A stretch of DNA of 58,765 nt, filler included, from Jimgerdemannia flammicorona (GCA_003990765.1; 2 parts of 2 records of this genome joined end to end with filler, not necessarily neighbours in it), one strand, 5' to 3'. Counted from the whole stretch's first letter, positions 9,421 through 44,350 are shown. Program-made: numbers and translations. The notes: generated by a model not told the origin, from the letters alone.

Positions 9421-11456
9421 TGTAAGTGCACAACCTCCAAGCCACCAAAATTACATGTCACCCTCTGAATAAGCCACTGAAATCACATGTGACCTCTGAA
9501 CAAATCTGGAAATCACCTGCTTGATCATGAAGCTGAGTCAAACCGAAGTCACAGCGCACAAAGCTGAGTCAATATGAAGTCATGGAATACAAGATTTATA
9601 TAAACAGAATCTTACCAATCAGGACCAAATGTATATATACCAAGCACCGAGACACGTCAAAACAGAGAACCAAAACAAACAACAACTATAACTTTCAAAT
9701 ACACAAACATGACCACTGAAATCTATAACTATATCTGTGCTGACATTTGGAATGCCATTGTCAACCGAGCCACACCCCCTCTGCCCCTCTACTTCATGAA
9801 AGCTCGATGGAACGCTCTGAACATGCTTAGTGAGGCCCACCGAATCGGACAAATCTCAAGCTACTACTAGATCGGCCGCCTCCTGGAAGATATGGTTGAA
9901 TACTACCATAATACAGACATTACCCAGATGTCTCAACATCAGAAGCTCATCGCCTGTAAACATCGAGAACTCTTTTATGAGTACAATACCTTTATTTCCC
10001 ACCTCCGAGTCACTATCAGCGAAATAGTTGCTACCCTGTCCTATAGCCAAATCGATAACATAATATAAGAACTCAACCATAAGTATCTCGAATACGTCCA
10101 GACTATAGACAGAACCTTCCCGCACCCTGATGACCATATCCTGCAAATGCCTCAAGTCAGATATGCCATGAAGGACATCTATGATATAATCCACTTCGAC
10201 GAAGATGAAGCAGAAGACAATGATCCCTCTGATGCCAACATGACCTCAAGCCAAGGATCTCTGCCAACTCTGATCATGTCACCAACCTTGCCGATGAACT
10301 TACAACAGTTCATAACCGCATATGAGACTTATTGGGACAATGACCACTGGCACGAATACTAACTTGCGTTTACCCCCGATTACTTTAATTACAATAAAGA
10401 GACTGGAGAACACAACCTGTACCTCCAGACAACTCTCGAGATTGAACCAACAACCCCACCACCTGAGTATGAGCAACATGAACCACAGCCACCAGCTTAC
10501 TACAACCCTGCGACTCATAGTGCTGTAACCTACAGAAGGTATACAGACAGTGAATCCAATGAAAGCGAAGACAATATACCCATCCTTCGCCCACCAACAT
10601 CTTATCCAGCATACGAAACAGACAATACTATCCTGTGGGACAGAGATGAAGTCTCAATGTATTACTACCTCAGCAAACAAGGAAAAGTAATCTGCGAACC
10701 ACTATTCCTAGACAACTACTTTATCAGAGATGATGCTATCGATGGTGATGTCATCGAAGATTACCCAGACAGTGCCTAAACTCATAAATAGCCTAGCAGT
10801 CATAGTATAGTTAGATTAGCTTTGTATGATATGACTGTAAACTGACTTAGCAGTCAGACAATCTCTTGATATATCAGATTACACTTGTACTACGTGACTG
10901 CATTCTGACTCAGCAAGGTACTTAGTGCTACATCCATATTCAGCATAGTCCAGATAGCCCCTCACTAGTATAAATACCCCCTCCCCCAGACCTCAGAATC
11001 TCAGACTCGAATACACAAGAACATTCCTGAATACTTCCCCACAAATATCCCTTCACACAACTACTCCTAGTATAGCAATATCATGAATAGCAAATAAACC
11101 TATTCCATAACTCACAAACTACTCTTAAGTAAATCTGCTCCCTGTTAGGTCCCACTCCTAACCCTGTCACGAAATTTCCTAATTGGGTATTGTCTGCAGC
11201 GATACGCCAATTCAACTAAGCTGGCCTTAGTTTCTTAAACTTCCTGAAATACGGAAAATCCTGAATATCCAGAACTAGTCCAAAAAAGGACTTTGATTGA
11301 GACATCAACCCGAACTTGAAATAAATAAGCGTAGAGGATGTACTCCATATGAAATTGATCTTGACCACAAGAAAATGGTCTTCCAGAACATCCAGAATAC
11401 CCAGAAAACCCTTCCAGAACTACATAACGGTTACCCTAAAAAGTAACCCTCTTACA
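9421..11456 (+). repeat. Family A 5' LTR (2036 bp)
   Basis: Inverted termini TGTAAG/CTTACA; aligns with 17755-19785 and 21174-23214; TATAAATACCCC at ~10969. Confidence 0.95.
9709..10779 (+). pseudogene. Accessory ORF inside family A LTR U3 (consensus 365 aa; this copy has an in-frame 27-nt deletion)
   Basis: MTTEIYN.ICADIWNAIVNRATPPLP...QISSYYQIGRLLEDM...DDAIDGDVIEDYPDSA*. Start and stop are in frame in all three forward LTRs; internal stops are C>T/G>A type and fall at different codons. Confidence 0.8.
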
Positions 11457-11459
11457 ACT

Positions 11460-11470
11460 TGGTAGCAACG
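11460..11470 (+). promoter_or_regulatory. Primer-binding site, initiator tRNA-Met-like
   Basis: TGGTAGCA starts 3 nt after the LTR; same motif at 23218 in copy 2. TGGTAGC is complementary to the 3' end of eukaryotic tRNAiMet. Confidence 0.7.
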
Positions 11471-13483
11471 TTTTACAATCCAATTCCACTTCAAGACGCT
11501 TCCTCACCCCACTACAAACCTTTCTGAGAATTTCTACAAGTTGGTATAAAGCCCAACCTCTGAACTGGAATTTATCCTGAACCATCTGACAATCTGGAGA
11601 GAATTGAACCTAACATACAAGGACAATTTGACCTCCATACCTGCAACAAGTGGGATAAACTTCATTCAAAGAAAGAAGTACTCCGGTTAAACCAGCAAAT
11701 AGGTGAAACCCTATTCACTGAACTCCTTGTACTACACCCAGTAAGTCAAGATGAAGAAGGTCTTATTGAAGTCTTCTTTACTCTTCTCAACAAGAGTTTT
11801 GTCAGCTCCACAAATCTGAGTGACCTAGGACAACCAGCAGTGGTCTTTCTAGCCTTAGTTCCTCATGAAGCCCAAGCCTCTGTAGCCAAGTGGCTCAATT
11901 CTACCAACTTCCACTGTACCAGGATCAAGACCGCCTTATACTACCGATTCCAGAACAGTAAGGCCCGCCATATCCTTAAAGAAGAAGCAAGAGAAACCCT
12001 TCATCAACTACCTGACCCTGAACCTGAAGTAGGCCCCGCTACAGCCCTATCTGAATCTGAAACCAATACCGAACCTGAACTTGACTTTGAATTAAGTCCA
12101 TCTGAAATCAGATATACAACTAATTCTGTCTACTTTGACGCCAAGCAAACCCAATTACACGGGGACCAAACTGAAGAAGAGGAGGAGTATCTTACTGAAT
12201 TCGATCCTGGATACACCACCGAAGGAGATGCCCTTCCATCAGGATGGAATACACCTACTCAGCAACAAATAGCTATCTATCAAGCCCTTACTCCAGATCT
12301 ACAACTACTACTCCAGCAACTTACACAGATCCAAAGAACCCCATCACACTCTGCACCAGTACCTCAAGTAGTACCAGTAACACCACTACCAGCAGTCTAA
12401 CCACCTCCAGTAAACAATATGGCGAACCAACAGATTCTAGACCTCACAGCCCAAGTAGCTATAATGGTAGCAACCATTACTGCCTTAGCTGAACAGACTC
12501 AACCTACTAAAAATCTGAGCCTACCTACCTTCAATGGTACTGTACAAGAAGTCCAAAGCTTCATTAGTGTAGTTGACACCAACTTTGAAGCCAATCAATG
12601 GACCAATGAGCGAGTTGCTGACTGTGTTCTGACAAACAATCAAGACCACACTCTGGAACAACTCTTTGCTACCACTACAGCCTATGTCTGCTAAGTTGTT
12701 ACATTCTTCCGAGGACCTGCCGAATAATAGTGGCGAACCCTTCCTGAAAAACCCCTTACATGGGATACCCAACCTACAGTAGTTGCTCAGAATGTAGCAA
12801 ACAATGCCCCAGGATATGGAGCCCATCCTGCAGCCCCTGGACTTAAACAACTCATGATTACTCAATACCGCAGTGAAACCATGATTGCCAAATCTCAAGT
12901 AAAACTCTGCAACCTCAAATTTGATGTACATGGCAAAGAAGAATTCGAAACCTTCTATACAAAACTCGAGTCACTCCTGAACACTGTTGGCCTAAGATAT
13001 ATTGCCAATGATGAAGCATGAAATAGTACAAGAGCAGACCACTTATTTGATGCCCTGCCTGAATGGCTTACTAGAAAAATCCAAGAACAAGGCCACCCAG
13101 TTGGTTGTGACCATCAACAATAGTGCCTGGCAAGAATCAAGACTATGGTCAAGCGAATCCTAACAGCTGGACCAATTCTGCCCCAAAGACAATTCAACAA
13201 CAAGGAAAAGACTTGGACTAAGAAAGAAGAACCCAAGCATGAAGCATCCCAAGCTCCCTCCACATCTATCTCTTGGACACCTAGAAATCATGAACCTACC
13301 CAGCCAAGTACCTTCAAGAAACTCACTGAAGGTGAAAGAAATGAACTTCGAAGAAGTGAAGCATGCTTCTATTGCTGAAAGACAGGACACATGGCCAGTG
13401 CCTGCCCTAACCAAAAACCGTAAACAGCAATAAGAGCAACTGTTACCACTCTGCACCACCTCAACAATCTGATCACCAGAATA

Positions 13484-13890
13484 TTAAACTTTATCAAGTT
13501 AAGACAAACTGCTAAGACCCCAACCAAAGGAAGCCAAAAAGCAGCTGGATATGACCTATATACAGCCAAAGAAGCTACAGTTTCCAACCAAGAAGTCAAA
13601 CAAGTCTACACAGGAATCAGTATCCAAATCTCTGAAGAATATGTTGGAAGAATATACTGTCACAGCAGCCTAGCATTGAAAGGACTCTCAGTAGAAGGAG
13701 AAGTTATCAATGAAGATTACACAGGTGAAATCATTGTCCTCATCCAAAACCATAGTTGGACACCCTTCAAGATCCCTATTGGTTTCTGCATTGCCCAGAT
13801 CCTATTCGAAAAAATCGAGTCAACCCTGACAGTCAAGAAAGTCCCTGAACTACTGCCCACCATCTGAGGATCTAAAGGATTTGGCTCATC
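13484..13890 (+). pseudogene. dut: dUTPase domain between Gag zinc knuckle and protease (family A copy 1)
   Basis: Five trimeric dUTPase motifs: AAGYDL, GRIYCHSSLA, GEVINEDYTGEI, IAQI, *GSKGFGSS. Confidence 0.92.
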
Positions 13891-16800
13891 AAATAAGGCC
13901 CCAACTCAACCTACCACAAGCAAAGAAGAATAATTCTACAAGAAGATTGAAGATGGATATATACCAAGTGGCTGATGCCCTCATGGCATTGGAATGTACT
14001 CTTCCTGAATAATTGATGATTACTTTTCTTGTATCAATGAACTGGCACAAAGAAGAACCAATAGAAGGAAAGCTCCTACAACTGAAATCACCACCATTGG
14101 ATCAGACAAACTGCTCATACTTAAGGCTTTTGTCAACTGAGCACCTGTCAAAATTATGATAGACAGTGGTGCCTCAGGCAACTTCATCAGTGAAGAGACA
14201 GCCAATAGACTCAAGATCTTCACCTCTCCAGTATAGCAAACTCAAGCAGTTGCTACAGCTGATGGAACCTCACATGTTATTAGTAAAGAAGTCCACAATC
14301 TATCCTTCCGAATTGGTGACTACCGAGTACATGTTACCCTCCAAATTGTACTACTTCCTAACAATGAAATTATCCTTGGAACTCCATGGCTAAAACAAGA
14401 GAACCCCATGATTGATTGAGTAAACCATTCTCTGACCATCAAGAAAGGATGCCACAACTTCAAACTGCAAGACGAAAAGGACCCACTCAATTCTAGTGAC
14501 CCTGGACCAAAGATCACCCACATCAACAAGATACAACTTAGGAAATTGGCCAAGAAATGCCCTCTCTTCACCATCTCCATCCGTTCATCCAAAGGAGAAC
14601 CCGAGAACTCTGAAGAAGATTTTTCCAAAGTTGACAGCCACATCAGACCACTACTCCAGAAATTCCAAGACATATTCCTGAAGAAGCTCCCAAAAGGCCT
14701 ACCTCCTAAATGAGTAATAGACCATGCTATCAAGACTATCCCAGATGCCAAACCAGCCTTCAAGTCAATCTACCACATGTCTTCAAGAGAAATTGATGCA
14801 CTCAAGAAGGAAATCAATGAACTCCTAGAACAAGGATTCATTAGACTAAGTATATCATCCTATGGTACACCGGTCCTCTTTGTAGTCAAAAAAGAAGGAG
14901 ACCTGTGAATGTGTATTAATTATTGTGACCTCAATGAACAGACTATCAAGAACTGTTGCCCACTACCAAGGATCAATAAAATATTTGATAGGCTCACCAA
15001 CCTGCAATTCATGAGCTCCTTTGACCTATGAAATGGTTACTGGCAAATTGCCATGAAAGAAGAAGACATCTACAAGACAGCTTTCCAAACTCGCTATGGA
15101 CACTTTGAGTTCCTGGTTATGCCCTTTGGCTTAACTAATGCTCCTGCAATCTTCTAGACCCTGATAATACCATTCTGCATCTATACCTGGACAAATTCAT
15201 TGTTGTCTATATTGATGACATCCTAGTCTTCAGCAAAATCCTAGAGGAACATCTTGAACACCTTAAACTAGTACTACTGAAACTTCAAGAAAACTGACTC
15301 TTTGCAAAACTCAGTAAGTGTGAATTTCTCCTGAAAGAAATTCAATTCCTTAGACACATTATCACTCCAAATGAAATCAAAGTGGACTCCAGCAAAATAT
15401 CTGCAATCAAGGATTGGCCCAGACCCAAGAAGCTGAAAGACCTCCAGTCATTCCTGGGATTAGCAAACTATTACAGGTGATTTGTTGCCAACTTTGCTAA
15501 AATCACTACTACTCTCAACCAAGCATAGCAAGAAACAAGAACAACCCTGGACCATAAAACAAGAGAAAGACTTCAACAATCTTGTAACTTGGGGACCTGA
15601 GCAAGATACTACCTTTCAAGTACTAAAGGATGCTCTGATAACCACTCCAGTACTTTAAGTGGTAAACCCTGTACTGCCATATGAAGTTACTACTGATGCC
15701 TCTGACCTAGCCCTTAGAGCAGTACTCATGCAAGAAGGACACCCTGTGGCCTACTACTCCCACAAGTTCAATGATGCTGAAATTAACTATGCAATCTACG
15801 AGAAGGAAATGCTAGCCATCATAGATACTCTGATCAAATTGTGACCCTACCTAGAAGGAGCATACTTCACCATATTGACTGACCACAAATCATTAGTCAA
15901 TATCAAGACACAGGCTACCCTTTCTCGAAAGTAAGCCAGATGGATGAAAATCCTCACCAACTTTGACTATGAAATCCAGTACCACTCTGGCAAGGAAAAT
16001 ATTGTTGCTAATGCAATCTCCAGACCACTAATTGAAGAGGTTATCCAAACTCTCACCTTGGTTACAAACTCCATCATGTAACAAATTATCACAGTATGTG
16101 CCGATGATAAAGAAGCTCAAGCACTGTGAGAAATCCTAAATAGTGATAATGCCGACAAGTATACACAGTATCATCAATACCAACTGAAGGATAATGCTAT
16201 CTACTACAAAGACAGACTGTATATCCCAAACAACCGAGACCTCTGAAGGACTATCCTATTTGAATATCATGATGCCCCTACAGCTGGACATTTAGGATTT
16301 GATAAATGTTATGAAGTTATCTCCCGAAACTTCTATTGGCCCTGCATAGCAGATCAGCTCAAAACCTACATCACTTCCTGTGATGCCTGCCAATGAAACA
16401 AGTCCTCAATACTAGCAAAACCCAGCTTACTTCACCCTATCCCAGTACTATCTGTGAATTGGGAACAAATCTCTATAGACTTCATTATACAACTACTCTG
16501 AACCAAGAATGGAAAAGATGCAATTGTTGTCTTTGTGGATTACCTCAGCAACCAAGCCCGCTTTGTGCCTACTACCACTACTGCAATAGCACCAGACATA
16601 GCCACACTCTTATTTGACAACATCTTCTACTATCATGGTCTTCCTAAGATCATAGTTAGTGACTGAGACCCAAAATTCACCAGCCATTTTTGGAAAGCCC
16701 TCCATGCATACCTTGGAACAAAACTTGCACTATCTACAGCCTTTCACCCTGAAACTGATGGCCAAACTGAAAGAATGAACTGAACTCTGGAACAAATGCT

Positions 16801-17740
16801 AAGGAACTATATCTCCTACAGATAAGATGATTGATATGAACATCTCACTGCAGTCGAGTTTGCTTATAACAACAGCAAGCAAGCCTCCCTTGGAATGACT
16901 CCATTCTTCGCCAACACTGGACAAAACCCAAACACCCCCTTGACACTTATCCAAACCACTGAAGAACCCTCGACAGTCGAAGCTGTTGAAGAATTCTTAC
17001 TTTGAATGTGCAATCTAAGCCAGATTGCCATCAAGAATTTATCACGAGCTCAAGAACAACAGTCACAGTATGTTAACCAACACCACTGAGAAGAAACTTT
17101 TGATATTGGAGAAAAAGTTCTACTAGACATCAGAGGATACCGAGTTGACAACCTCAAGCACAGACTATCTACAAAGCTGAACAGCAAGTTCATTGGACCA
17201 TTTGAAGTCATTGCACAAGTCTCTCTAACCTCCTACAAATTGGCACTATCAGACACCATTAAGATTCACCCAGTCTTTAATGTTCAATGTCTCAAGTGAT
17301 ATAATAAGAATGATGACAAGCTATTTCCAAACTGGACCACCAAACCACTTGCACCTATCATTATTAATGACCAAGAAGAGTATGAAGTTGAACAAATCCT
17401 CAATAAATGTGGCAACAAGAGCCACCCTGAGTACCTTGTTAAATGGAAAGGTTATCTGATCCACAATACAACCTGGGAACCCAAGACCAATCTCCAGAAT
17501 GCTACCAACCTAGTTCAGGAATATGATTCCTTGAACAACTAGAACCAAATACTCCATACCTATCTGTACATACTATATATTATCCTTCCAAACATTATAA
17601 TTATTGCAAACCAAACCAAGAACTCAGCAAAACAAGACAAGAATACTGACTCTCTGAAAAATGGCAAAACTGAAAGCAAGTCTATTTCTCCCTATATCAC
17701 TGAACAAAATTAGAAGACCCTGATGAGGACGTCGAAAGCT

Positions 17741-17753
17741 AAGAAGGGGAGAG
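17741..17753 (+). promoter_or_regulatory. Polypurine tract
   Basis: AAGAAGGGGAGAG one base before the 3' LTR. Confidence 0.85.
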
Positions 17754-17754
17754 T

Positions 17755-19785
17755 TGTAAGTGCACAACCTCTAAGCCACTGAAATCACACATGACCTCTG
17801 AATAAATCTGGAAATCACCTGCTTGATCACGAAGCTGAGTCAAACTGAAGTCACAGCACACAAAGCTGAGTCAATATGAAGTCACAGAACACAAGATTTA
17901 CATAAACAGAATCTTACTAATCAGGATCAAATACATATATACCGAGCACCGAGATGTATCAAATCAGAGAACCAAAACAAACAACAACTATAACTTCCAA
18001 ACACACAAACATGACCACCGAGATCTATACTTGTATCTGCACTGACATTTGGAATGCCATTGTCAACCAAGCCACACCCCCTCTGCCCCTCATGAATATC
18101 CATAGCCTAGCACCCCTCTACTTCATAGAAGCCTGATGGAATGCTCTGAACATGCTTAGCGAGGCCTACCGAATCGGACAAATCTCAAGCTACTACCAGA
18201 TTGGCCACCTCCTGGAAGACATGATCGAACACCACCATGATACAGACATCACCCAGATGTCACAACACCAGAAGCTCATCGCCCACAAACATCGAGAACT
18301 CTTCTACGAGTATAGCACCATTATTCCCCACCTCTGAGTTACCATAGCCAAAATGGTTGTTACTCTGTCCTATGGCCAAATCGACGATATGATACAAAAA
18401 CTCAATCACAAGTACCTCGAGTATATTGAAACCACAGACAGAACCTTCCCACATCCCAATGATCATATTCTGCAAATGCTCCAAGTTAGATACATCATGA
18501 AGGACATCTACGATATAATCCACTTCAATGAAGACGAAGCAGAAGACAATGATCCCTCTGATACCAACATGACCTCTAGCCAAGGATCTCTGCTAACCCT
18601 GATCACACTACCAACCTTGTCGATGAACTTACAACAATTCATAACAGTATACGAGACTTATTGAGACAATGACCACTGGCACAAATACCAACCTGCATTC
18701 ATCCCTGATTACTTCAACTATAATGAAGAGACCAGAGAACACAACCTATACCTCCAGACAACCCTCGAGATCAAATCAACCACTCCACCACTCAAGTATG
18801 AGCAACATAAACCACAGCCACCAGCTTACTACAACCTCACAACTCATAATACTGTAACCTACAGAAGATATGCAGACAGCAAATCTAATGAAAGTGAAGA
18901 TAATGTATTCCTCCTTTGCCTACCAATATCTTATTCAGTATATGAGATAGATGATGCCATCTTGTGGGATAGAGATGAAGTTCCAATGTATTATTACTCT
19001 AGTGAATAAGGAGAAGTAATCTGTAAACCCCTCTTCCTAGACAACTACTTCATCAGAGATGATACAATCAATGGTGATGTCATCAAGGACTATCCAGACA
19101 GTGCCTAAATCCATAAATAGCCTAGCAGTTATAGTATAGTTAGATTAGCCTTGTACAATATGACTGTAAACTGACTCAGCAGCCAGATGATCTCTTAATA
19201 TGTCAGATCACACTTGTACTATATGACTACATTCCAACTCAACAAGGCACTTAGTGCTACATCCATATCTAGCATAGTCCAGATAGCCCCTCATTAGTAT
19301 AAATACCCCCTCCCCCAGACCTCAGAATCTCAGACTCAAATACACAAGAACATTCCTGAATACTTCTCCACAATATTCCTTTACACAACTACTCCTAGTA
19401 TAGCAATATCATGAATAGCGAATAAATCTATTCAAATAACCCACAAACCACCCTTAAGTAAATCCACTCCCCATTAGGTCCCACTCCTAACCCCATTACG
19501 AAATTTCCTAATTGGGTATTGTCTACAGTGATACGCCAATTCAACTAAGCTGGTCTTAGTTTCTTGAACTTCCTGAAATACAGAAAATCCTGAATATCCA
19601 GAACTAGTCCGAAAAGGGACTTTGATTGAGACATCAACCTGATCTTGAAATCAATAAGCATAGAGGATGTACTCTATATGAAATTGATCTTGACCATAAA
19701 GAAAATGGTCTTTCAGAATATCCAGAACCTTCAGAAACCCTTCTAAAACTATGTAACGATTACCATAAAAAGCAACCCTCTTATA
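17755..19785 (+). repeat. Family A 3' LTR
   Basis: Colinear with 9421-11456; terminal CA changed to TA. Confidence 0.95.
18011..19108 (+). pseudogene. Family A LTR accessory ORF, second copy (1098 nt)
   Basis: ATG 18011 to TAA 19108 in one frame; ORF-track pieces 17954, 18152 and 18353 are its fragments. Confidence 0.8.
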
Positions 19786-19788
19786 CAT

Positions 19789-21173
19789 ATCTGATATGTC
19801 AAGAGATCATCTGACTGCTGAGTTAGTTCACAGTTATGTCATGTAAGGCTAGTCTAACTATACTATGACTGTTAGACTATTTATAGGTTTAGATACTATC
19901 TGGATAGTCTTTAATAATATCACTATCAATGACATTATCTCTGATGAAGTAGTTGTCTAAGAAGAGTAGTTCACAGATTACTTCTCCTTGTTTGCTGAAG
20001 TAGTAATACATTGGGACTTCATCACCATCTCATAGGATAGCATCATCTGTCTCATATACTGGATAAGATGTTGGTAGGTGAAGGAGTAGTACATTGTCTT
20101 TGCTTTCATCAGATTCACTGTCTGCATATCTTTTATAGATTACAGCACTATGAGTCACAGGGTTATAGTAAGCTGACAGCTGTGGTTTGTATTGCTTGTA
20201 CTCAGGTGGTGGAGTTGTTGGTTTGATCTTAAGGGTTGTCTGAAGGTATAGGTTGTGTTCTCCAATCTCTTCATTGTAGTTGAAGTAATCAGAGGTAAAT
20301 GCAAGTTAATATTTGTACTAGTGGTCATTGTCCCAGTAGGTCTTGTAGATGGTTATGAACTATTGTAAGTTTATCAACAAGGTTGGCAGTATGATCAGGG
20401 TTGGCAGAGATTCTTGGCTTGAGGTTATGTCAGTGTTGGAGGGATCATTGTCTTCTGCTTTATCTTCATTAAACCAAATTATATTGTAGATATCCTTTAT
20501 GGTATATTCAACTTGAGGCATTTGCAGGATATAGTTATTAGAGTGTGAGAAGGTTCTGTCTGTAGTCTCAACATACTTGAGATACTTGTGGTTGAGTTCT
20601 TATATGTATCATGTTATCGATTTGGCCATAGGACAGGGTAGCAACCATTTTGACGGTAGTAACTCAGAGGTGGGGAATAACAGTACTATACTCATAGAAG
20701 AGTTCTCGATGTTTATGAGCAATGAGTTTCTGGTGTTGGGATATCTGGGTAATATTTGTGTTATGGTGGTATTTGACCATGTCTTCCAGAAGGCGGCCAA
20801 TCTAGTAGTAGCTTGAGATTTGTCCAATTCAGTGGGCCTTGCTAAGCATGTTCAGGGCATTCCATCAGGCTTCCATAAAGTAGAGGGGTGCTAGGCTATA
20901 GATATTCATAAGGGGTAGAGGGGGTGTAGCTCAGTTGATAATAGCATTCCAAATATCAGTGCAGATGCAGTTATAGATCTTGGTGGTCATATTTGTTTGT
21001 GTTTAGAAGTTGTGATTGTTGTTTATTTTAGTTCTCTGTTTCAACACATCTTGGTGCTTGGTATATATATATTTGGTCCTGATTAGTAAGATTCTGTTTG
21101 TGTGAATCTTATGTTCCATGACTTTGTGTTGACTCAGCTTTGTGTGCTGTAACTTCAGTTTGACTTAGCTTCA
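19789..21173 (-). mobile_element. Inverted partial family A LTR, including the accessory ORF (20990-19889)
   Basis: Reverse complement of LTR positions ~110-1460; truncated on both sides by forward family A LTRs. Confidence 0.92.
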
Positions 21174-32761: not shown

Positions 32762-33264
32762 TCAGTCATCATCCCAATAGGCAAAAGCAGCTTCTGCATC
32801 TATACCTGTTCCATCATTATCATCTGAACTATGGTCACTCCATTTTAGTGGCTCCTCTTCTTCCTCAGGGAATAGGATCTCAACTTGGTGAATGATGCTG
32901 AGATAGGTTGACAGGGTCATCCTTTGGAGGTCATACAGGAAGAACTGGGCCTGGATTAAGACAGAAGGGTTCTGTTTGTAGATTGTATATAGTCTGTCTG
33001 CAGCAGTAGTATTCCTTCTGTTCAGACCAGTGGTGTTACAGATATAGGCTAGGTCTGGGAGGGGAAGATTCTGCAATTGTTCTCCAATTGCATAGTATGT
33101 CTGCAGCTGATGGACCTAGAGTAGTCTCTTGGCCAGAGTGAGGTTTTCTTGATGAACCTGGATTTTCTGAAGGTATGTTCCCAGAACTGTGACAGGGGAA
33201 CTAGTAGGGCTTGAAGGGAACTGAGGATAAGGGTCTGGAGACAGTTGTCAATTCTCTGGTTCAT
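32762..33264 (-). pseudogene. Family B accessory ORF3 (copy 1, one frameshift)
   Basis: MNQRIDNCLQTLILSSLQAL.../QNLPLPDLAYICNTTGLNRRNTTAADRLYTIYK...AAFAYWDDD*; lies between integrase and PPT. Confidence 0.8.
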
Positions 33265-35829
33265 GGTGTGAGAAAAGGTATATCTTGAGGTGATTGATAT
33301 GTATTGGTGTCCTCAGAGTTCATCCATCCATACTTCTTAAATAGATGCTGGTTCCTCTGATATTGTATACAAGGTAAAGTTCTTCCCATTTGGGCTCCAG
33401 TTTGGCAGCAAAGTTTGTTTCAATTATGCTTCTCTTAACTAGTACTTGATCTCCAATCTTGATCTCCTGATCCTTCTGTTTCTGGTTATAATACTTCTTT
33501 TGTCTTTCTTGGGCTTTGATAATCTGATCTTGGGCTTGATTACATAACTGTTCTGCCTTCTTGAGGAGGTCTCCGAGATTCTCATGGTCAGCAGTTCTGG
33601 TTTTCTTAGCAAATATCATTTCAAATGGCTTTTGTTTGGTGGAGGCAGCAGGGGTGTTCTGAATTTCCCATAGGATCTCAGGTAAGCAGAGGTCCCAATT
33701 GGTACAATTGACTTGGGCAAGTCCTTTCTTGATAGTCTGGTTTGTTCTTTCTGTCATACCATTGGTCTGAGGGTAGTATGATGTAGTCCATTTGAGGTGA
33801 ATCTTGTGAATTCGGGTATAACTTGTGATTATATTATAGATGAATTCTGTGCCTTGGTCAGAGATGAGTTCTTCTAGGGGTCCATATCTGAATATGAGTC
33901 TATGGAGAAGGCCTACAATGGTTAAGGCATCTGTGATTTCTATTGGGAAAGCCTCAGACCACTTAGTCAGATGTTCCACAAGTATAAGGATGTATTTTTT
34001 TCTTCTTGGTATAACTAGTAGAGGTCTGATTACATCTATCTCCATCTCTGAAAGATGTTGTCTGATAGTGTAATTGGTTGTAATAGTGCTTGATAGTTCT
34101 TCCTTCCTTAATACTTCTGGCAGGTGTCACATTTCTTGAGTACATTCTGGACTTGTGTTCTGAGATTGGGCCAATGTTGGTATGTTGTTCACAGCTTCTC
34201 TTCTATATTCACCTGTCCCTGGTGGACTTTCTGATATTCTTTTTGGATGAGATCCTCTTGTGCCTTGATGGTTTGAGGAGCTTCCTTTAGGGTGTAGTTC
34301 TTTGGGACACCCATCTTCTGGTTCATTAGAGTTGGTAGGAAAGTACATCAACATTGTTGTGGGCTTTCCCTGCTTTGTGGATGATGGTGATTTGTAATCC
34401 TGAAGAATAAGGATCTAGCAGACAAGGATTCTGGTGGGTTCCTTATAGTTGAATAGCCATTTGAGGGCTGTATGGTCTGTGATCAGACTGAATCTTTTTC
34501 CAATAAGATAATGCTTAAACAGAGTATATGACTGCAAGGCATTCCAGTTTAGTGCTACCATAGTTTATCTGCTGATAATTGGTAGCTCTGCTTGTATAAG
34601 CTATCATATGGTGTTGTTGATCAGGTCCTTCTTGGGCTAGAACTGCTCTGAGGCCATCTTTAGAAGTATCTGTATACAAGATGAATGGCTTCTGTAGATT
34701 GGGGCACACAAGGATTGGTACTGTAGTCATGCAGTTCTTGAGTTCTTTGAAGGCTTTTTCTTGTGATTCTGTCCATTTGAATGATACTCCTTTCTTGAGA
34801 AGAATTCAGATTGGGGTAGAAATTTGAGTGAAATCCTTAATAAATCTTCTGTAATAGGATATCAGTATCAAGAATGATAATGTTTCCTTTGGGATCTTGG
34901 GTGCTGGCCAATTGTTGATCTTTTCAGTTTTTTTTAGGTCTGCATGGGTTCCTTCTTTCAAAACTATGAATCCAAGAAATTCAAGTTTCTGTTTCCCAAA
35001 GTAGCATTTCTTTGCATTCAATCTCAAGTGGTTCTTATGGGTGAGCTTGAAGAATTCTTCTAGATAATGCAGGTATTCTTCAAAATTTGCTGAATAAATG
35101 TTGGAATTGTCCATGTATACAATCAGGCAGTGGTGGATCAAGGGGACATAGACTGAATTCATCATTCTCTGAAAGGTGGGGGGTGTATTGTAAAGTCCAA
35201 AAGACATTTGAAGGAATTCAAACCATTTTCCTAAAGCAAGGAAGGCTGTCTTTTGAATGTCTTTGGGGTCCATGGAGATCTCATAGAATCCTGCAAAAAG
35301 ATCTATACTGCTGAAGTATCTGACATCCTGTAACTGATCCAAAAGGTCATTGATTCATGGCAAAGGATAGACATCCTTTTTGGTGACTGAATTGAGTTTC
35401 CTGTAATCTATACAAAGTCTCCATCCTCCTTTTCAAATATTTTTAAGTGATGGGGTATTCTATAGGGTTTCTGCTGGATGGGTGTTATATTTCCAGTATT
35501 TATACTATATTGGTATGATGGGTTGTATGGCAAGTTGCCATAATCAGTGGTAAAGATATCTTGATATTTGTTGAGAAGTTCTACTAGTTGTTGCTGTTGT
35601 TGAGGTGTCAGTTCTTCTCTGATATTGGTGGAAGGCTTCACTGTCTCCTAGGTCGCAGAGGGGCCTTTCCTTTCTTCTGGGACCTTTTGCCATTTCCCAA
35701 TAGGTTTAGTTTGTAAACTTCCCTATGAGTTCGGTTGAGAAAAGGTACCAGATGTCCTATGATGGTTCCTTTTGGTAAGATAATGGTCTCCCAACTTTGG
35801 TTGGTTGCTCAGGAGTATACTGGATTGAT

Positions 35830-35861
<32 letters not shown>

Positions 35862-38800
35862 AAAGTCACTGGATTGATTTTGTCAGAGAATGTGGGTCCT
35901 TCTATGTCCAGGTGGGGGATATCTTCCTTGGGTTCAAAGAAAAGGTTTCTGGGATCGAGTGGTGCAAAGATTTTGAAGGTAGTTTGTTCTCCAGGCTCTA
36001 GGATGAGATTCTTGTGCAGTTTGACTGGTTGGTGGTATACCTGCTGGGGGGCATTCCTTTTGAGGTGGTTGACTTGAAGGAGGTGTACTTCCTTCTTGTC
36101 TGAGCTTCCAAAACCTTTGGCTTCAGTCAGTTCAGATACTTCCTATAATTGTGGGGTCCTGACCTTCATGAAGACTGCTTGGGTAATCTTCTATCCTCTA
36201 ATGGTTCAGTGCCATTCTGCACTGCTGTTGTATAGGATAACCTTGATTTCACCTATATATCCTGGGTCATTGGTTCCTCCTTTTATGGTTATTTCTTGTC
36301 TGGCAAGTCCAGACCTTGAGGTCAGTTGTATGTAAGCTCCTTGGGGTGGCTGTATGGCTAATCTAGTTCTGATCATGAAGGTTTTTCCAGGCTTGATAGA
36401 TTCATCCTCTAGACTGTGAAGATCATATCCTATATCCTCTGGGTGGGCTTTGGTCAGGGGTTTAGCCTTGGGATGCAGCAGGGCATACTGGGCAATATCC
36501 TTGCTGAGTTCAGGCTGACCTAAGACTGAAGCTCCACTAGCAGAGAGCCTCTAAGCTCTAAGGTTGAGGTGTGGCCATCTGGCTCCAGTAGAGGGGTCTC
36601 AGAGATAGTTGATTTCTCTTCTTCCTGTAGGGTCTAGGGCCTCCATGAAGTTGGTGGCATCTTTTACCCATCCTTGGCAGAATGCATGTCTGATGAGAAC
36701 TCAGATGTCTTTTTCTAAATCATAGATCTCAAGGGTCCTTTTTCCTGGCTTTTTGATTTGGCTTTTTTGGATCTGGCTTTGGTTATCTCCTCTCTTCAAA
36801 GTATGGATAGTAACATCATGACTGAGATAGATCTTCTGATGCCTGCAGTCTCAGTAATCTGGGTGTCTTCTATGGTTGCAATAACCCATTGCTTGGAAAT
36901 AATGTTCCTGGTTGTTGATCTCTTGTTGTTTAGGGAATCAGTATCCATCTTGGTCATAAGTTGGTAGAAGAGTAGATAAGGAGTATACTTCTGTCTGGGT
37001 GAAGAGGCCTTGTCCTCTGAATCAGCTTTGCAACTTAGTGGTAACTCCTTGGAAGATAGTTGACTGTGTAACTATGTTCAGGGGTTCTGGTCTCTGGGGT
37101 CTCTGTCTCTTCTGTTGGTCTAGTAAATGGCACTGATAGCAGTAGTCTCAGGGAGAGTGGAAGACCATTTGGTGTGGACATCTTTTTAGCCAAAAAGCCT
37201 TTTCTTAATGAGTTTCTTTCTTGGAGATAATGGTGATTATACTGGGTCCTTCTTCTGAATTCCAAGGGTCATTGTCTTCAGGTAGTGTCCAGTGAGGATC
37301 ATCCCATGGAATGAGTTCTGGGACTTCTACCGCTTTGGGTACTTCTTGTTCAGGAACTTCTTGGTCTGGAACTTCTTCTTCCTCAGATGATTCTTGTCTC
37401 CAAATTGCTAACACTTCTGCAGCTTCAGCTGCAGGTGTTTCTGGAGCATGTCTGCATTTCTTCTTCTTCTTTCTACATTCTGGGCAGGCTGTGCCAGGCG
37501 ATTTTCTTGTTCCCATGATCTTGGAGGAATACTCAGGACACTTGTGTCTCTTGAGGCAGGTAGGGTATCCTTTAATTTCTCCTGAAATGGCTCTGATGAT
37601 GATAGGGACAGTGTTCTTGGCCCAAAAATTGTCTTCTGGTCTATCATTCACTAGGTTAATTTGGGGGTTGAGTCTGGGATTATTCCCATCTTCAGATTCT
37701 TCTTCCTCTTCTATAGTAGATTCTTCACTACTGGCATATTCTTCCTGAATAGTGATTTTCTTCTTCTTCTTCAATTGCTCATAGCTGGTCACCTTAATTC
37801 TGTACTTCTTGCCTCAGTAGTCAAACTTGAGTACTTGTTGACTAATATCAACGACTGCATTCATTTCCTTCATCCAGTTGGTATCAAGAATTATGTCATA
37901 GGTGACAGCTTCAGTGACAACAGCTTTGGGGATAGAGAACTGAATGTGTCCCAGAGAAATAGTGATGTTTCATACTTCCCCAAGGGGTTGAGTTTGGGCT
38001 CCATCTGCTACTATGATGCTGAGGTTAGATAGTCCATCAATGGGCCATTAGAGGGTGTTCAGGAACCATTTGGCAATGACACAGACAGCTGCTCCTGTGT
38101 TTATGAGGATTTTTGCCTTTTGTCCTCCAATATCTCTATATAGATAGATGCTGACATGTCTTTCAGCTGCTTTGACAGAGATGGGAGCTGGTTCTTGCTG
38201 TGGGATTGGGACTTGGCCAGTGCTAGACCTGGTTGTTCTCAATAATTTTTTTCAAACTCCAGCTAGTATCAGTTGCAGAAACTGCAGGAGAGAGACTTCT
38301 ATCTTGGCCTCTTGAATCTTCTGCCAGACTTCATTGTAGATGTCTCTAGGCATGGTCTTTGGGGTGAACTTCTTTTTGGGCTTTGAAGCAGCAGGTTTCC
38401 ATTCTTCTTGTTCCATTTCTTTATCTTCTAGTAGTAGCTTGTTTGTCTTGGAGACAAAAGGTGAAGGAGTCCAGGGAGGTGTTTCTACTTCCTCCTGATG
38501 TTCTTTATCTTCTTCTTGGATTATTCTTCTGCTGATATTTCTGGATGGCCTTCCTACAGGTCTCTTCCTTTTCTCTGCTGAGTAGACTGTTTTTTAGGTG
38601 GTAACCTTTATAGGATATAAGTCTAGGTCACTGTAGTCTTCTCTGTTGCTTGCTTCTTCGAAATCTTCAACAGAATGGACTTCAGTCTTCTTGTACTGAG
38701 TGTCATTCCTTCAGTTTGGTGGTTCTGAGTCCCTTCAGTCACTTCTTTTGTTGTCACATTCAGTGGTATAGTGTCAGAATTGTCCACAGTAGAAGAATTG

Positions 38801-39657
38801 GACTTGAGCTCTGTCTTGGACATGTTATCTTCTTTCTTCTTACTGGTAATTCCTGTTATCTCTTGGTGGATAACCTTGGCTCCTCTGTGGTGGGTATCCT
38901 CTGTTGTCTTGGTAACTCCAATTTTTGCATGTAGTGAGTTTTTCAATCTATTGAATCAATTGGTCCAACTTGGAGCTGAGGTCTTGGATTTCACTTCTGT
39001 TCTTCTTTTCTTCCTTGGCTGGCCTTCTTTCTTCAGATCTTTCTTGTCCTTGAAGGAGTTCTTGTAGGGCTTTGACCAGGATATCTTCTTTATCTTCTTT
39101 CTTATCATGATCACTTCAGGTAGTTCTTTGTCTAACATCAAAGAATCCTTGGGCTGTATCTACCTGCTCTTCAGACCTTCTAATACCTAGGGTGTAGACA
39201 TACTGGACAATGTTTGGGAGAATTCCATTTATGAAGATCATTGGACCTATTATGTCCTGGTTGGTGGCATTGAACCTGGCAGCATGTATTCTCTTCTGGT
39301 TTCTTATAAAGAAGGCTCTGGGTGATTCTCCAAGATTCATCTTCATTCCTATAATGGATTCTTGAGCCTTGTAATGGGTTTCATTTCCTATATACTTTTC
39401 AATGAGCCAATGGACCATGCCACATACACTAGCTCATAAGACATCACTGCTTATATCTGTCTTATCAGTTCTGAATCTGGCTCATCTGCTGTTTAGTGGA
39501 AAATTCCTCTGGCTGGTTCTCTGAACTGGGCCTTGTAGATGGTGATTTTTCTTTCATCTGAGAGATTCTTCAGGGCTGCAATTCCTTCAATTCCATCAAG
39601 GAATTCTCTGGGATCTTCCTCCAGGTATTCTGCAAAGGTTGGCAATGAGGTGGCCAT
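33250..39657 (-). pseudogene. Family B copy 1 Gag-PR-dUTPase-RT-RNaseH-IN polyprotein
   Basis: MATSLPTFAEYLEEDPREFLD; PR ILINTGAA; dUTPase ~36100-36490; RT YMDN; RNase H LYTDTSKDGL; IN ELISDQGTEF..YYPQTNGMTER. Confidence 0.9.
35819..35883 (-). mobile_element. Minimal poly(A) retro-insertion with 16-bp TSD
   Basis: ACTGGATTGATTTTGT is duplicated at 35819-35834 and 35868-35883 around a + T26 + aaagtc; family B copy 2 has a single site. Confidence 0.8.
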
Positions 39658-42600
39658 TTTGTCATCACTTTCTTCTGATTCTGATTCAGGTCCAGATTCT
39701 GATTCTAATTCACTTTCTGAGCTGTCACTGGAGATGGGGGTGCTTGGGTATCCTGAGGATGGTGTTCTGGATCTTGGATAAAGTAGAATGAACCTAGGTA
39801 TTCTTGTGGGAGCTACTTCCAACTCTGCAAGGGCTTGTGGTAAAGGTTCTATTGGTGAGATTGATAGAACTGGTATGGGGTATCTGGCTGTAAGATCTCA
39901 GACTTGTGTAATAAGATCTTCTAGTTCTTGTGCAAGTTTTTCAAAATCTCCAACAGGGCTGCTTGTGTTGTCTGGTTGATCTGGTTGGGGATTTTGGGCT
40001 GTCCTGTCTTCTGGTTCTGGTTGAGATCCTTCTAATTCTGGGTAGTTGGCAAGTCTTGATGTAATTACTTCTCTTCCTGTCCAGATGCTGGTAATAACTG
40101 GTTCTCCTGTAGTGGCAGAGATTGGTGTTGTATCAAATGTATCCAGTTTGACTCTGGGTTCTTGTGAGCTGAAAAGATGTCAATTTTAAAATCTTCCCAG
40201 TTAAGCCTCCAAATGTAACATGGCTGGCTCAATGGAGGCAAATTACAAGGTTGGGGGTTGATGTAGTTTGGCTTGAGCTCCCAGTTACTTTGTCAAAAAT
40301 CAATAAAATATTCTAATATTCCTGAGGTCCTTGTTGGTGTTTAGTGGTATAATAGTCAAAACTGGATATCTGCAAATTTGTGTGTCGATTTCCTAATTGG
40401 GACAGTTCTCTGGGTATAGCAGTGATTTGTATGTCTTTTCCTTCTTGGGTCAACTGGGAATTAGTAGGATTTTATATATAGTGTGATAATCTCCAAAAGT
40501 ATGTAATTTCTGGCAGATAGTTTGATTTGGCACAGCTTCTCCAAAAGCAGCAGGCTTCTTGAATGTTATGGATTCTTCATACTGGGAATTATATTGGTGG
40601 TAGATAACTCAATAACTCAGACTCACTAGAAACAACAAATAACTTGGATGTCATGAATAATTCTAATAACTCGGGTAATTCAGATAACTTGGATGGCACA
40701 GATTCTTCCGAATCAGGCTCTTCTGGGAATAATAACTTGTTGACTTGATTTCTTCTGAATTGGCAGGCTTCAACTAGAAATATAGCTAACTTGGAAATGG
40801 TGGCTTCAACTGGGAATACTACTCAGATATTGTGGATTCTTCCTAAATCAGCAACTTCAACTAGAAAACATGCCAGCAGCTTCTTGGAAAGGATCTCTTA
40901 GCAAAGTTGTGTCAAAGACTGACTTCATTTGTGTGAATAGATTACTGCAAAGTTGCATTAAGAGACTGGCTTATGGCAAGAATAGGTGGGCTCTCTGGGA
41001 ATGCAACAAATAACTCAAAGGGCAGTGAAGTTCTCCTTGAACTTGGTGGCAAACTCAGATTCTTCAGGCTTAGTCTGGCAAGTATACCAATAATTCCAAA
41101 GGTGGCAAAGTTCTTTCTTGAACTTTGGCAGCAAATCTTCAGCTTTGTATCAGAAAGTGGACTGGAGTGGGAAAATAATCTCACAATCTCCTAGCAGTGG
41201 CTGTAGAGTTCCTCTCAAAGTGTGGTAGACAGACTTGTCTTTTGCTTCAATTTCAGACTGAGGTTTATTCACTCTTGTCTCTGGGGTAATTTATATATTG
41301 TGGTTGCTATCTGATTGCTATAGCTAACTATAGATTTACTACTTCTGGTAATGTTTGGGTGTATCCTCTGGGTACAGGTGTGTCCACAGGACATGAGTGT
41401 GTCTGCAGGACATGAGTGTGTCTGCAGGATATAAGTGTGTCCACTAGACAAAGGTGTGTCCTCAAGATACAGATAAACAACCCTGATCTGGTATTCTGGC
41501 TAATTATAAGTATGGCAGGCATAAGTAACTATGATATACTAGAAGTCATATCATGCTGGGTAAGTATGTTAATTGTTTGCATCATCTGACTAAGTTATAA
41601 TTCAGGTGGTATGTTTTGATTTATTATAGTATTTACTTAAAACAGATGGATTATTTGAATATATACATAAATAGAACTCTTAAACAGATGCTCAGAAACT
41701 ATATTTTTTATAAGTAAGATAATTATGATCACTATTTGATCTATGTAAAATTTGGGTATAAAAATATAGTCCAATTATATATCTACTAGCTTATTTTCCT
41801 TTTAGCTACTTTATAGTCAAGACTCAAAGACTTCTATAAGTCTCCTTTTTAGAAAAGTAGTTAAATATAAGTCTCTACTATTAAGAATCTTATTAATAAA
41901 ATAGATGAGCTACTCAAGATTACTATTATAAATCTACAGAAGACTCAATAGTATCAAGCTAAGTATACTGATAAGAAATGTTATAATATACTATTATTAA
42001 TTAAGTTCTTTTATATATCAAAAAAAGATATAATTACAAATCAATTACTTATCAAACAAATCTAAGTTTATTAAACCTTTTGAGATTATAGAACAAGTCT
42101 TTATATCCTTCTACGGCCTCAAGCTATTTGAAACTATATAAATATATTCAGTATTCTATATATCTTATCTCAAGATCTGGAATCAGTCACTATCTTACTT
42201 TGGTAAAATTTCCAATCTTCTATTTCAGTAATTATTAAAAACTATATTGAGAATAATAGCTAAACAATCAGATAAAAATAATCTTGAGCTCATTCTTCAT
42301 ACCTAGAGTTCAATAGTCTATTTCATTTACTCTAGAATTATATTAAAATATATATACTGTAATGTGCCAGCTCGATGGAGGCAAATTACAAGGTGGGGGT
42401 TGATGTAGTTTGGCTTAAGCCCCCAGTTACTTTGTCAAAAGCAACAAAATGTTCTAAAATTCCTGAGATCCTTGGTGTTTAACAGTATAATAGTCAAGAT
42501 CTGGATACTGTGCAAGTGGTTTCCTTTTTGGGACAGGTTCTTGGGTGTAGTGATGATTTGTGTGTGAATGGACTTCCTTCTTGAGTCAACTGGGAATGGC

Positions 42601-43840
42601 AGAATTTGTGTAGCGAGACGATCTCCAAAAGTATGCAATTTCTGGGTGTGACGGTCTGGCAATTTAGCGGTTCTCCTTCTTGGGTGACGATCTCTGATTT
42701 CTGTGTGACGATCTCTTGTGTAGCATGGTGGGTTCCTTATGCGGATGTTCTGATAATTCAGCGGATAACTCAATTTGGCTCACTGGGAATCGTATGGCAT
42801 AGATTCTTCTATACCGGGCTCACTGGGAATGTAGATAACTTGAAAGTAGTGGACGATGTAGATTTGGTGGGCTTCTTGAAAACGGTGGCTTAACTGGGAA
42901 TTAACTTGGATGGTGCGGACTCTTCTAAATCGGTGGCTTCAACTGGGAATACGGCAGATAGCTTAGAAATGGCGGGTGATGCAGATTCTTCCTGAATCGG
43001 CAGGCTCTAACTGGGAAATGGGATGGCGTGAATTCTTCCTGAATTGGTGGGCTCCAACTGGGAATACGAACAACTGGTGGCGTTCTTTGGGAAAGGGTCT
43101 CTTGGCAAAGTTATGTCAAAGACTGGCTTCGTTTGTGCAACAAATCACTGCGAAGTTGTGTCAGAAACTGGCTTGAGCAAGGCGGCTTTCTTGGGAAGGC
43201 AGAGGATAGGGTTCTTCAGGCTTATCTGGCAAGTGTACCAATAGCACAGCTTATTCCTTTAAGCGGCGGGTTCTTCAAAAGGTGGCGAAGTTCTCCTTGA
43301 ACTTAGGTGGCAAATCTTCAGACTTATCTGGCAAGTGAACCAAAAATGTAACAAACTCTTCTTTGTATCAGAAAGTGGACCAGAGTGGGAATAAGGGGAC
43401 CAATTGCTCAATCTTTAGAGGCTTCTTTGGTTTGTACTTCAATTCAGACTGAGGTTTTATTCACTCTCGCCTCTGGGTTAATTTATACAAGTTGGTTGCT
43501 ATCTGGTTACTATGTGGCTAACTATAGATTTGCTATCTTCAATAATGTTTGGGTGTGTCCTCTGGGTACAGGTGTGTCTGCAGAACATGAGTGTGTCTGC
43601 CAGACATGAGTGTGTCTGCAGGACATGAGTGTGTCCTCAGGACACAGGTAAACAATCCTGATCTGATGTCTTGGCTAATTATAAGTGTGGTGGACATGAG
43701 TAACTATGATACTGGAAGTCACATCATGCTGGGTAAGTATGCTAATTGTTTGCATCATCTGGCTAAGTTATAATTCAGGTGGTATGTTTTGGTCTGTTAC
43801 ATCAGCCCCCACTGAAGGGTAGTCTGTTCCAGACTATTCT

Positions 43841-44350
43841 TCAGTCATCATCCCAATAGGCATAAGCAGCTTCTGCATCTATACCTGTTCCATTATCATC
43901 TGAGCTGTGGTCACTCCATCTCAGGGGCTCTTCTTCTTCCTCAGGAAATAGGGTCTCCACTTGGTGAATAATGCTGAAGTAGGTGGGTAGTGTTATCCTT
44001 TGGAGGTCATTCAGGGAAAACTGGGCCGGGACTAAGGCAGAAGGATTTCGTTTATATATAGTGTATAGTCTGTCTGCAGCAGTAGTGTTCCTTCTGTTCA
44101 GGCCAGTGGTGTTTCAGACATAGACTAGGTCTGGAAGAGGGAGATTCTGCAATTGTTCTCCAATTGTATAATATGCCTGCAGCTGGTGGACTTGGAGTAG
44201 CCTCTCGGCCAAAGTGAGGTTCTCTTGATGAACTTGGATTCTCGGAAGATAGGTTCCATTGGGTTCCTGGAACTGAGGCAGGGGAACTGGTAGGGCTTGG
44301 AGGGAACTGAGAACAAGAGTTTGGAGGTGGTTGTCAATTCTCTGATTCAT
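43841..44350 (-). pseudogene. Family B accessory ORF3 (169 aa, one internal TGA)
   Basis: MNQRIDNHLQTLVLSSLQALPVPLPQFQEPNGTYLPRIQVHQENLTLAERLLQVHQLQAYYTIGEQLQNLPLPDLVYV*NTTGLNRRNTTAADRLYTIYKRNPSALVPAQFSLNDLQRITLPTYFSIIHQVETLFPEEEEEPLRWSDHSSDDNGTGIDAEAAYAYWDDD*; its ATG overlaps the last codons of integrase in another frame. Confidence 0.85.

Follow-up and report, generated by a model that had tools for sequence, protein, structure and literature searches.

Several retroviruses carry accessory genes in or overlapping the 3' U3 region of their long terminal repeats (LTRs), namely sag of mouse mammary tumour virus (MMTV), nef of the human and simian immunodeficiency viruses (HIV/SIV) and the tas/bet region of foamy viruses, whose Tas protein has an acidic activation domain and an internal promoter of its own. 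Extra open reading frames (ORFs) occur similarly in plant Ty3/gypsy retrotransposons, for example ORF1 of Ogre and the 3' ORFs of Tat elements. For bdelloid rotifers, the portions of PMC5408684 considered here describe LTR retrotransposons in which the same type of ORF3 is present in unrelated lineages, usually as a separate spliced transcription unit. In fungi, dUTPase-bearing Gypsy elements and chromoviruses (the PosPlaTy3 families of Postia placenta, Phanerochaete elements and Tmt1 of Tuber) are treated in the considered portions of PMC2864245, where a figure legend names an 'additional ORF with unknown function'. Here, we analysed a stretch of 58,765 nucleotides from Jimgerdemannia flammicorona (GCA_003990765.1), composed of two parts of two records joined with filler and referred to as the window in the following. 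It contains two dUTPase-bearing Ty3/gypsy LTR retrotransposon families, A and B, which are only distantly related and whose copies are nested and decayed; each family has its own orphan gene immediately 3' of pol. The safe result is that these are two orphan accessory genes which are well supported as former genes and whose kinship is unproven.

A preliminary description of this DNA had located one accessory ORF within each LTR of family A and another one, ORF3, between integrase and the polypurine tract (PPT) of family B. All six start positions given there (9709, 18011, 21430, 20990, 44350 and 33264) proved right, but none of the ORFs is intact, as all contain stops or a frameshift, and none of the six appears in the ATG-to-stop listing of the window at a minimum of 120 amino acids (aa). 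The copies are as follows:

9709..10779, plus strand: accessory ORF in the 5' LTR of element A1, 356 codons with 3 internal stops, without 9 codons that are present in the other copies
18011..19108, plus strand: accessory ORF in the 3' LTR of A1, 365 codons plus stop, 4 internal stops
21430-22527, plus strand: accessory ORF in the 5' LTR of element A2, 9 internal stops
start at 20990, minus strand: accessory ORF in an inverted partial family A LTR, 5 stops in the first 128 codons, then a frameshift near 20606
43841..44350, minus strand: ORF3 of element B2, 169 codons, 1 internal stop
32762..33264, minus strand: ORF3 of element B1, reading frame lost beyond about codon 28 through a 10-nt deletion

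All four A copies start with MTT(E/K)IY and can be read over about 356-366 codons, and both B copies start with MNQRID (at 33264 and 44350, minus strand). That each family possesses an unannotated accessory ORF unlike Env, as had been proposed, is borne out by our data, and past purifying selection on both is supported by a permutation test matched for sequence context, in which each observed substitution was re-dealt to a random site of the same base and neighbour (2000 permutations). In the frame of the A ORF, 96 changes are synonymous where 67.8 +/- 6.8 are expected, and in that of B ORF3 61 where 34.4 +/- 4.7 are expected; neither value was reached in any of the 2000 permutations. The other two frames of both ORFs yielded no synonymous excess in the same test, and the integrase, which served as a control, gave 127 synonymous changes against 75.2 +/- 7.0 expected. 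Ratios of nonsynonymous to synonymous substitution rates (dN/dS) according to Nei-Gojobori, 0.17-0.26, were not relied upon, since a bias towards transitions and third positions rich in C confound them; the plain ratio is misleading here because nearly every difference between copies is a transition, with C>T and G>A prevailing (in the A ORF, transitions account for 223 of 239 singleton changes).

Relatives outside the window keep these frames open. For the A ORF, one of 424 candidates from the database search matched, P0001, a stop-free fragment of 247 aa which spans the C-terminal two thirds of the ORF at 62% identity. P0001 as query retrieved only itself among 81 candidates, and neither metagenome contigs (28 pattern matches) nor viral contigs (27 pattern matches) yielded a confirmed relative of the A ORF. 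B ORF3 has nine relatives among database proteins, P0002-P0010 (five of 132 candidates matched in the database search, and an exhaustive search gave six matches), as well as one related metagenome locus, L001; no relatives were found in viral contigs. One of these six, P0011, was dropped as a spurious repeat protein. P0002 and P0003 (171-172 aa) are stop-free, 67-70% identical to B ORF3 and have the same start and end, and P0007, which belongs to a more distant B subgroup and is about 50% identical to P0002, is likewise stop-free.

These findings bear on the notion that the two reading frames were open merely by chance, within repeated DNA, and never encoded proteins. Stops or frameshifts in all window copies and the lack of any known domain match in either ORF would fit such a view, but it is contradicted by a synonymous excess that is confined to the ORF frame and was not attained in 2000 permutations for either gene, and by stop-free relatives of 50-70% amino-acid identity which retain frame, start and end. 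In addition, the stop at codon 218 of the ORF in the A1 3' LTR (TGA, 18662-18664) is TGG, a tryptophan codon, in nearly all related soil-metagenome contigs, which read G where the window copy has the stop-making A. We therefore regard chance frames as extremely improbable and conclude that the A ORF and B ORF3 are real former genes.

The decay of the copies is of the cytosine-deamination type. In the A ORF, the C>T rate per site declines from CpG (0.19) over CpA (0.12) and CpC (0.085) to CpT (0.033), and the LTR copies (9470-23214 and 31210-52889) give similar values of 0.19-0.20 for CpG, where sites are scarce, 0.07-0.12 for CpA and CpC, and 0.03-0.04 for CpT. Classical repeat-induced point mutation (RIP) was rejected, as the rate peaks at CpG and not at CpA. 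Family A (9400-29330) recurs in very high copy number among the contigs of two soil-metagenome runs, each from a different study, with 10410 pieces at least 80% alike in the first run (X1) and 1826 in the second (X2); X1 contains 1491 pieces that are at least 99% alike. These pieces differ from the window mostly by T>C and A>G, meaning that C>T decay has gone further in the window copies.

The position of the A gene was derived from the following features:

9470..11456, plus strand: 5' LTR of A1, 5' edge blurred, ending in ..CCCTCTTACA
from 11457, plus strand: primer-binding site (PBS) of A1, ACTTGGTAGCA, directly after the 5' LTR
17742..17753, plus strand: PPT of A1, AGAAGGGGAGAG, read directly
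17755..19785, plus strand: 3' LTR of A1, a TG..CA LTR with ends given as TGTAAG...CTTATA
17936..17941, plus strand: TATATA in the A1 3' LTR, 70 nt before the ATG of the ORF
19297..19307, plus strand: GTATAAATACC, putative promoter TATA of the element, 190 nt past the ORF stop, present in 3/3 LTRs (also at 10968 and 22716)
19420..19428, plus strand: GAATAAATC, putative poly(A) signal, about 120 nt past the TATA, exact in 2/3 LTRs (also at 22851)
21174..23214, plus strand: 5' LTR of A2, from self-BLAST and LTR ends

The location of the A ORF inside the LTR is confirmed by the PPT at 17742-17753, the LTR at 17755-19785 and the PBS following the 5' LTRs at 11457 and, in A2, at 23215. As the PPT lies upstream of the gene, the gene is inside the 2-kb LTR, starting 256 nt into it and ending about 675 nt short of its end. 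In the third A LTR, AATAAA is found at the place that matches GAATAAATC. Since TATA and AATAAA are located downstream of the ORF in all three LTRs, the ORF most probably resides in U3, and the order on the 3' side of A1 (PPT at 17742, ORF at 18011-19108, TATA at 19297, AATAAA at 19421) is, as judged from motifs only, the layout of a gene embedded in U3. Lying inside the LTR and upstream of the putative promoter TATA, the gene is present in duplicate, once in each LTR.

The TATATA 70 nt before the ATG in the A1 3' LTR is a possible promoter specific to the ORF; the motif recurs ahead of the ATG in the other LTRs, at 9597 and 9632 (72 and 107 nt) and at 21351 (74 nt). The same motif can be read differently. 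If transcription of the element started at the TATATA near the 5' end of the LTR, the A ORF would lie in a very long R and would be the first cistron of the genomic RNA, comparable to plant Ogre elements with their extra ORF1 upstream of gag. The spacing to the ATG (72-107 nt in the A1 5' LTR with its two motif copies, 70-74 nt in the other two LTRs) agrees with this arrangement, and a transcription start site (TSS) just after TATATA would make the AUG of the ORF the first AUG. However, it requires an R of about 1.5 kb, and the stronger TATA consensus, with AATAAA 120 nt further on, is downstream of the ORF in all three LTRs. The two promoters are, moreover, not mutually exclusive, and we consider a gene in the 5' leader an improbable alternative to a gene in U3.

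In family B, the gene precedes the PPT, as had been described: the stop codon of B2 ORF3 is at 43841-43843, followed by the PPT and the LTR edge.

43805..43814, minus strand: purine-rich tract of B2, CAGTGGGGGC, just before the 3' LTR edge at 43801

ORF3 ends 26 nt ahead of this tract, and with the PPT downstream of it the B gene (169-172 codons) is internal to the element. The ATG of ORF3 is located 5 codons before the pol stop in both B1 and B2, resulting in a 17-nt overlap (44334-44350 and 33248-33264). L001, with 79% identity to B2, has an ATGA at this junction (L001:1180-1236), in which the start of ORF3 and the TGA stop of pol overlap, a 1-nt indel shifting the frame relation between pol and ORF3 relative to B1 and B2. 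Such a close junction might suggest that ORF3 is a C-terminal extension of the integrase, reached by programmed frameshifting and serving as a targeting module in an element without a chromodomain. In line with this, the ATG falls within the last 5 pol codons of both B elements and shares nucleotides with the pol stop of L001, family B has no detected chromodomain, and in P0005 the ORF3 frame stays open over 41 codons ahead of the ATG. Yet, because the frame relation differs between B1/B2 and L001 by the 1-nt indel, no fixed frameshift between pol and ORF3 is conserved. Furthermore, the stretch upstream of the ATG in the ORF3 frame carries stops in B1, B2 and L001, and the start M(N/T)QR(I/V)D is common to seven of the nine database proteins as well as B1, B2 and L001, the exceptions being P0005, which begins 41 codons upstream, and P0010, a C-terminal fragment. 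An integrase extension is thus very improbable in our view, and we treat ORF3 as a gene of its own.

The preliminary description had stated that the two families keep their accessory genes at different positions. This holds insofar as the genes lie on opposite sides of the PPT, but both would directly follow pol in the RNA if the downstream TATA is the promoter of family A. As predicted from the motifs, the RNA order would be gag-pol-PPT-ORF-R in A and gag-pol-ORF3-PPT-U3-R in B, so that the genes would differ only in the side of the PPT.

The layout of both families was read from self-BLAST and self-comparison together with Pfam scans of translations that read through stops; PPT, PBS and LTR ends were taken directly from the sequence. 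The remaining features are:

11457..17741, plus strand: internal region of A1 with gag (CCHC), dUTPase, protease (PR), reverse transcriptase (RT), RNase H, integrase (IN), SH3 and chromodomain
about 13511-13891, plus strand: dUTPase of A1, Pfam E 1.2e-28
about 17381-17527, plus strand: chromodomain of A1, PF00385 (Chromo), E 8.4e-14, after SH3_Tf2-1
19789..21174, minus strand: inverted partial A LTR, from self-comparison
23215..29320, plus strand: internal region of A2, running into N at 29334-29377 and 29390-29433
31210..41626, minus strand: element B1, LTRs at about 31210-32720 and 40214-41626
42358..52889, minus strand: element B2 with gag (CCHC), PR, dUTPase, RT, RNase H and IN
about 47236-47604, minus strand: dUTPase of B2, Pfam E 1.1e-23

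Both families display the hallmarks of LTR retrotransposons: the LTRs are direct repeats bounded by TG..CA, the 5' LTR is followed by a PBS, and the 3' LTR is preceded by a PPT. In both, the Pfam positions give the pol order PR-RT-RNase H-IN, which is that of Ty3/gypsy elements (Metaviridae). Among the further matches are RT_RNaseH (1.3e-28) and Integrase_H2C2 (4.7e-18) in A1, where the CCHC of gag is weak, and RVT_1 (1.7e-30) and RT_RNaseH (1.8e-34) in B2. The differences between the families that had been listed earlier, PBS, LTR length (about 2.0 versus 1.45 kb), a chromodomain in A only and the position of the dUTPase, all stand. The LTRs of family B have the ends TGTAAC..GTTACA. A chromodomain was not found in family B by Pfam at E<=0.01; therefore, family B is not classified as a chromovirus, and family A is one because of the chromodomain at the C-terminus of its integrase. 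That the two are distinct Ty3/gypsy families is further in agreement with RTs which are only 35-43% identical and INs which barely align, with tblastx similarity confined to scraps of 20-26 residues. The dUTPase is positioned before PR in A and between PR and RT in B, with only 34% identity between the A and B versions over 79 residues (tblastx). Low identity and differing positions in pol would be consistent with independent acquisitions of the dUTPase, as discussed in the considered portions of PMC2864245.

The 5' LTR of A1 is 85-87% identical to 17772-19783 and 21191-23214 (self-BLAST). The A1 LTRs do not form a sister pair: the ORF in the 5' LTR lacks 9 codons and is free of the stops at codons 42 and 109. 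All A LTR pairs are about equally diverged (82-84% identity in the ORF). The mismatch between the A1 LTRs could stem from recombination between elements, from gene conversion or from recurrent CGA>TGA changes. At the other end of family A, N runs follow the internal region of A2, and hence its apparent 3' truncation reflects an assembly gap and not necessarily a real truncation; the TTAATTAATTAA between the two 44-N runs (29334-29433) looks like a linker at a scaffold join.

Both gene products are predicted, with fair probability, to be soluble proteins in which an N-terminal helical part, about 140-150 residues long, is followed by a strongly acidic tail that contains aromatic residues. In the B protein, a helical part of about 135 residues (isoelectric point (pI) 9.6) precedes a tail of 33-36 residues with tryptophan and tyrosine that ends in YWDDD; in P0002, this tail has 15 D/E and no K/R in 36 residues. 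In the A protein, the helical part covers about 150 residues and has a pI of 5.7; it is followed by an acidic tract, by YETYWDND and by a tail rich in tyrosine, proline and acidic residues. This tail of about 215 residues is probably disordered, as predicted by the Atlas model of P0001, in which it is modelled as such (predicted local distance difference test (pLDDT) 0.39); the Atlas model of P0002 reaches a predicted template modelling score (pTM) of 0.68. A PPxY motif in the A tail was considered and dropped, PPAY being present in two of three full copies, PPEY in one and neither in P0001. Neither protein resembles Env, as had been noted before: a transmembrane segment is lacking, with a maximal Kyte-Doolittle mean over 19 residues of 0.9-1.4 in all copies and relatives, and no Env family of Pfam was matched. 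Pfam-A searches with both ORFs at E<=10 returned only noise (LST1 at 0.062, Peptidase_C21 at 0.2), and among PDB chain sequences the A profile had 0 matches and the B profile a best E of 0.33. Structural neighbours of P0002 in the protein Atlas were restricted to unnamed clusters with template modelling (TM) scores of at most 0.37, and P0001 had no usable match there.

The preliminary description had further proposed that the two families share this gene, based on a colinear alignment by eye, and had named the absence of significant profile similarity as evidence to the contrary. The alignment as such is reproduced by hhalign from Met1 to the boundary between FP and the acidic tract, but its statistics are borderline and not significant (probability 1.1-2.5%, P 0.005-0.05), and a shared gene is not upheld on this basis. 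Thus, homology of the A and B genes is not shown, and common ancestry appears somewhat less probable than separate origins; either each family acquired its gene independently, or the genes are relatives whose divergence is too great for proof.

Several observations nevertheless argue for true homology between the N-terminal ~215 residues of the A ORF and B ORF3, as one helical accessory family that would be either ancestral or exchanged, in which A would have gained the long C-terminal tail and the PPT would have shifted upstream of the gene. The hhalign match is colinear over 128-136 columns, the best one covering 136 columns with a score of 24.6 and P 0.005 (0.05, 0.019 or 0.005 depending on the alignment used), and its score was reached by none of 300 column shuffles and by two of 246 shuffles of eight-column blocks. 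BLASTP of A against B gave E 0.009 (15/53 identities) and against P0007 E 0.002 (14/46), global alignments of A and B had z-scores of 2.4-4.3, and a six-frame search of the window with the hidden Markov model (HMM) of B ranked the four A copies, in the correct frame, highest among the non-self matches. In a Smith-Waterman ranking of 1470 windows, the A N-terminus was top or tied top for two of three B proteins. PLPL and YYxIG occur at nearly equal residue numbers in both proteins, each of which continues with an acidic tract and YWD(N/D)D, and in the RNA both genes would come right after pol.

Against homology, in addition to the low hhalign probability, a reversed A profile scores 23.9 compared to 24.6 for the real one, and most of the score derives from a single block of about 25-45 residues, PLPL...Q(I/L)xxYYxIGxxL. 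The bits of the B HMM for the A copies are only 5-8 (E 0.12-0.8 in a database of 786 chunks), and unrelated PDB chains attain 12-14 bits with the B profile. In the reciprocal search with the A HMM, B2 ranked second among non-self matches at E=2, and for P0003 the A ORF was outside the top eight Smith-Waterman windows. The A majority residue matches B at 7/41 B-invariant and 22/86 variable columns, i.e., without enrichment (one-sided P 0.90). Moreover, the pair had been chosen by eye from the same data. A relic of the A C-terminal tail was not found in the B LTR (best non-self E 1.7). AlphaFold2 (AF2) models, with a mean pLDDT of 41 for B and 32 for A, are too poor for a comparison; their helix patterns look alike, which is a weak sign for all-helical proteins. 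Taken together, we consider homology a possibility that is somewhat doubtful but to be taken seriously. A more far-reaching version, which we regard as unlikely, would have A and B as very diverged homologues of an old 3' accessory gene of dUTPase-bearing Ty3/gypsy elements of fungal type. According to this version, a shift of the PPT would have brought the A gene into U3 and turned the A LTR into a full cassette of TATATA, ORF and poly(A) signal, with a trans-acting protein that, even from solo LTRs, might boost the family or blunt silencing.

Whatever their kinship, the accessory proteins would be made from the 3' end of the element RNA. The mRNA of the A gene could start from the TATATA 70-75 nt before the ATG (72-107 nt in the A1 5' LTR) and end at the poly(A) signal of the LTR, and thus every A LTR would be a self-contained gene. 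For B ORF3, ribosomes might reinitiate at the pol stop, or a spliced message might be used. The accessory protein would act in trans as a non-enzymatic adaptor. Our preferred candidate role, although of low probability, is that of an activator which, like Tas, would stimulate the LTR of its own element by means of the acidic-aromatic tail; roles as adaptor to host factors or in anti-silencing are alternatives.

A number of points weigh against this reading of two similarly built and similarly placed accessory proteins. The helical part is mildly basic in B (pI 9.6) but acidic in A (pI 5.7), no DNA- or RNA-binding feature was found in either protein, and the proposed function is deduced from composition alone. 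U3, R and U5 of family A were assigned solely from motifs, and a TSS at the upstream TATATA would instead place the A ORF in a very long R. Finally, stops at codons 42 and 109 are common to three of the four A copies (A1 3' LTR, A2 and the inverted copy), and the gene may already have been broken when these copies transposed, unless recurrent CGA>TGA changes account for the stops.

Outside the two families, the window contains a decayed piggyBac-like transposase at about 3660-4810 (minus strand), with pieces of PF13843 (DDE_Tnp_1_7) distributed over three frames (E 8e-18, 8.8e-10 and 6.1e-06). Short diverged direct repeats of 72-76% identity are located at 56859-57485 and 5455-5731, the former within the most GC-rich part of the window (0.535).

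Extra genes of LTR retrotransposons are raw material for retrovirus-like regulation and are barely described in fungi. The open-access literature searched yielded no account of a fungal LTR that contains an ORF, and the portions of PMC3248453 considered contain nothing on extra ORFs. The elements treated in PMC2864245 resemble those described here in that, in the portions considered, the dUTPase is located either ahead of PR or between it and RT, chromodomains occur and element lengths go up to 13 kb. In contrast to family A, the same portions give neither sequence nor position for the extra ORF and describe no ORF embedded in an LTR. The bdelloid elements, according to the considered portions of PMC5408684, similarly combine a pol that includes a dUTPase with a family-specific ORF3 after pol, but their shared ORF3s, unlike the A and B orphans, have clear homology (GDSL esterase, DEDDy exonuclease, Env). 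Should the gene be common to both families after all, the accessory function would predate the split of distant Ty3/gypsy lineages. A selected gene that takes up half of a 2-kb LTR would also mean that relocating the PPT is all it takes for an internal gene to become part of the LTR. As in plant Ty3/gypsy elements, where the partial accounts considered place a lineage-specific extra ORF beside gag-pol (e.g., the env-like ORF of Athila, to which no similarity was detected), both families carry an addition of their own. To our knowledge, no such plant ORF lies inside an LTR.

The A gene is closest in arrangement to sag, nef and tas, as it is located after pol and the PPT, inside the LTR and upstream of the putative promoter TATA, and appears to be neither structural nor enzymatic. 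It differs from these retroviral U3 genes in that it has no sequence or Pfam/PDB match, belongs to a fungal-type element without env, fills about half of a 2-kb LTR and is known here from sequence alone. The residual new finding, of moderate interest, would be a selected orphan gene inside a 2-kb LTR; a gene of this kind would make LTRs, solo LTRs included, protein-coding units, an arrangement for which the U3 genes of retroviruses are the nearest parallel.

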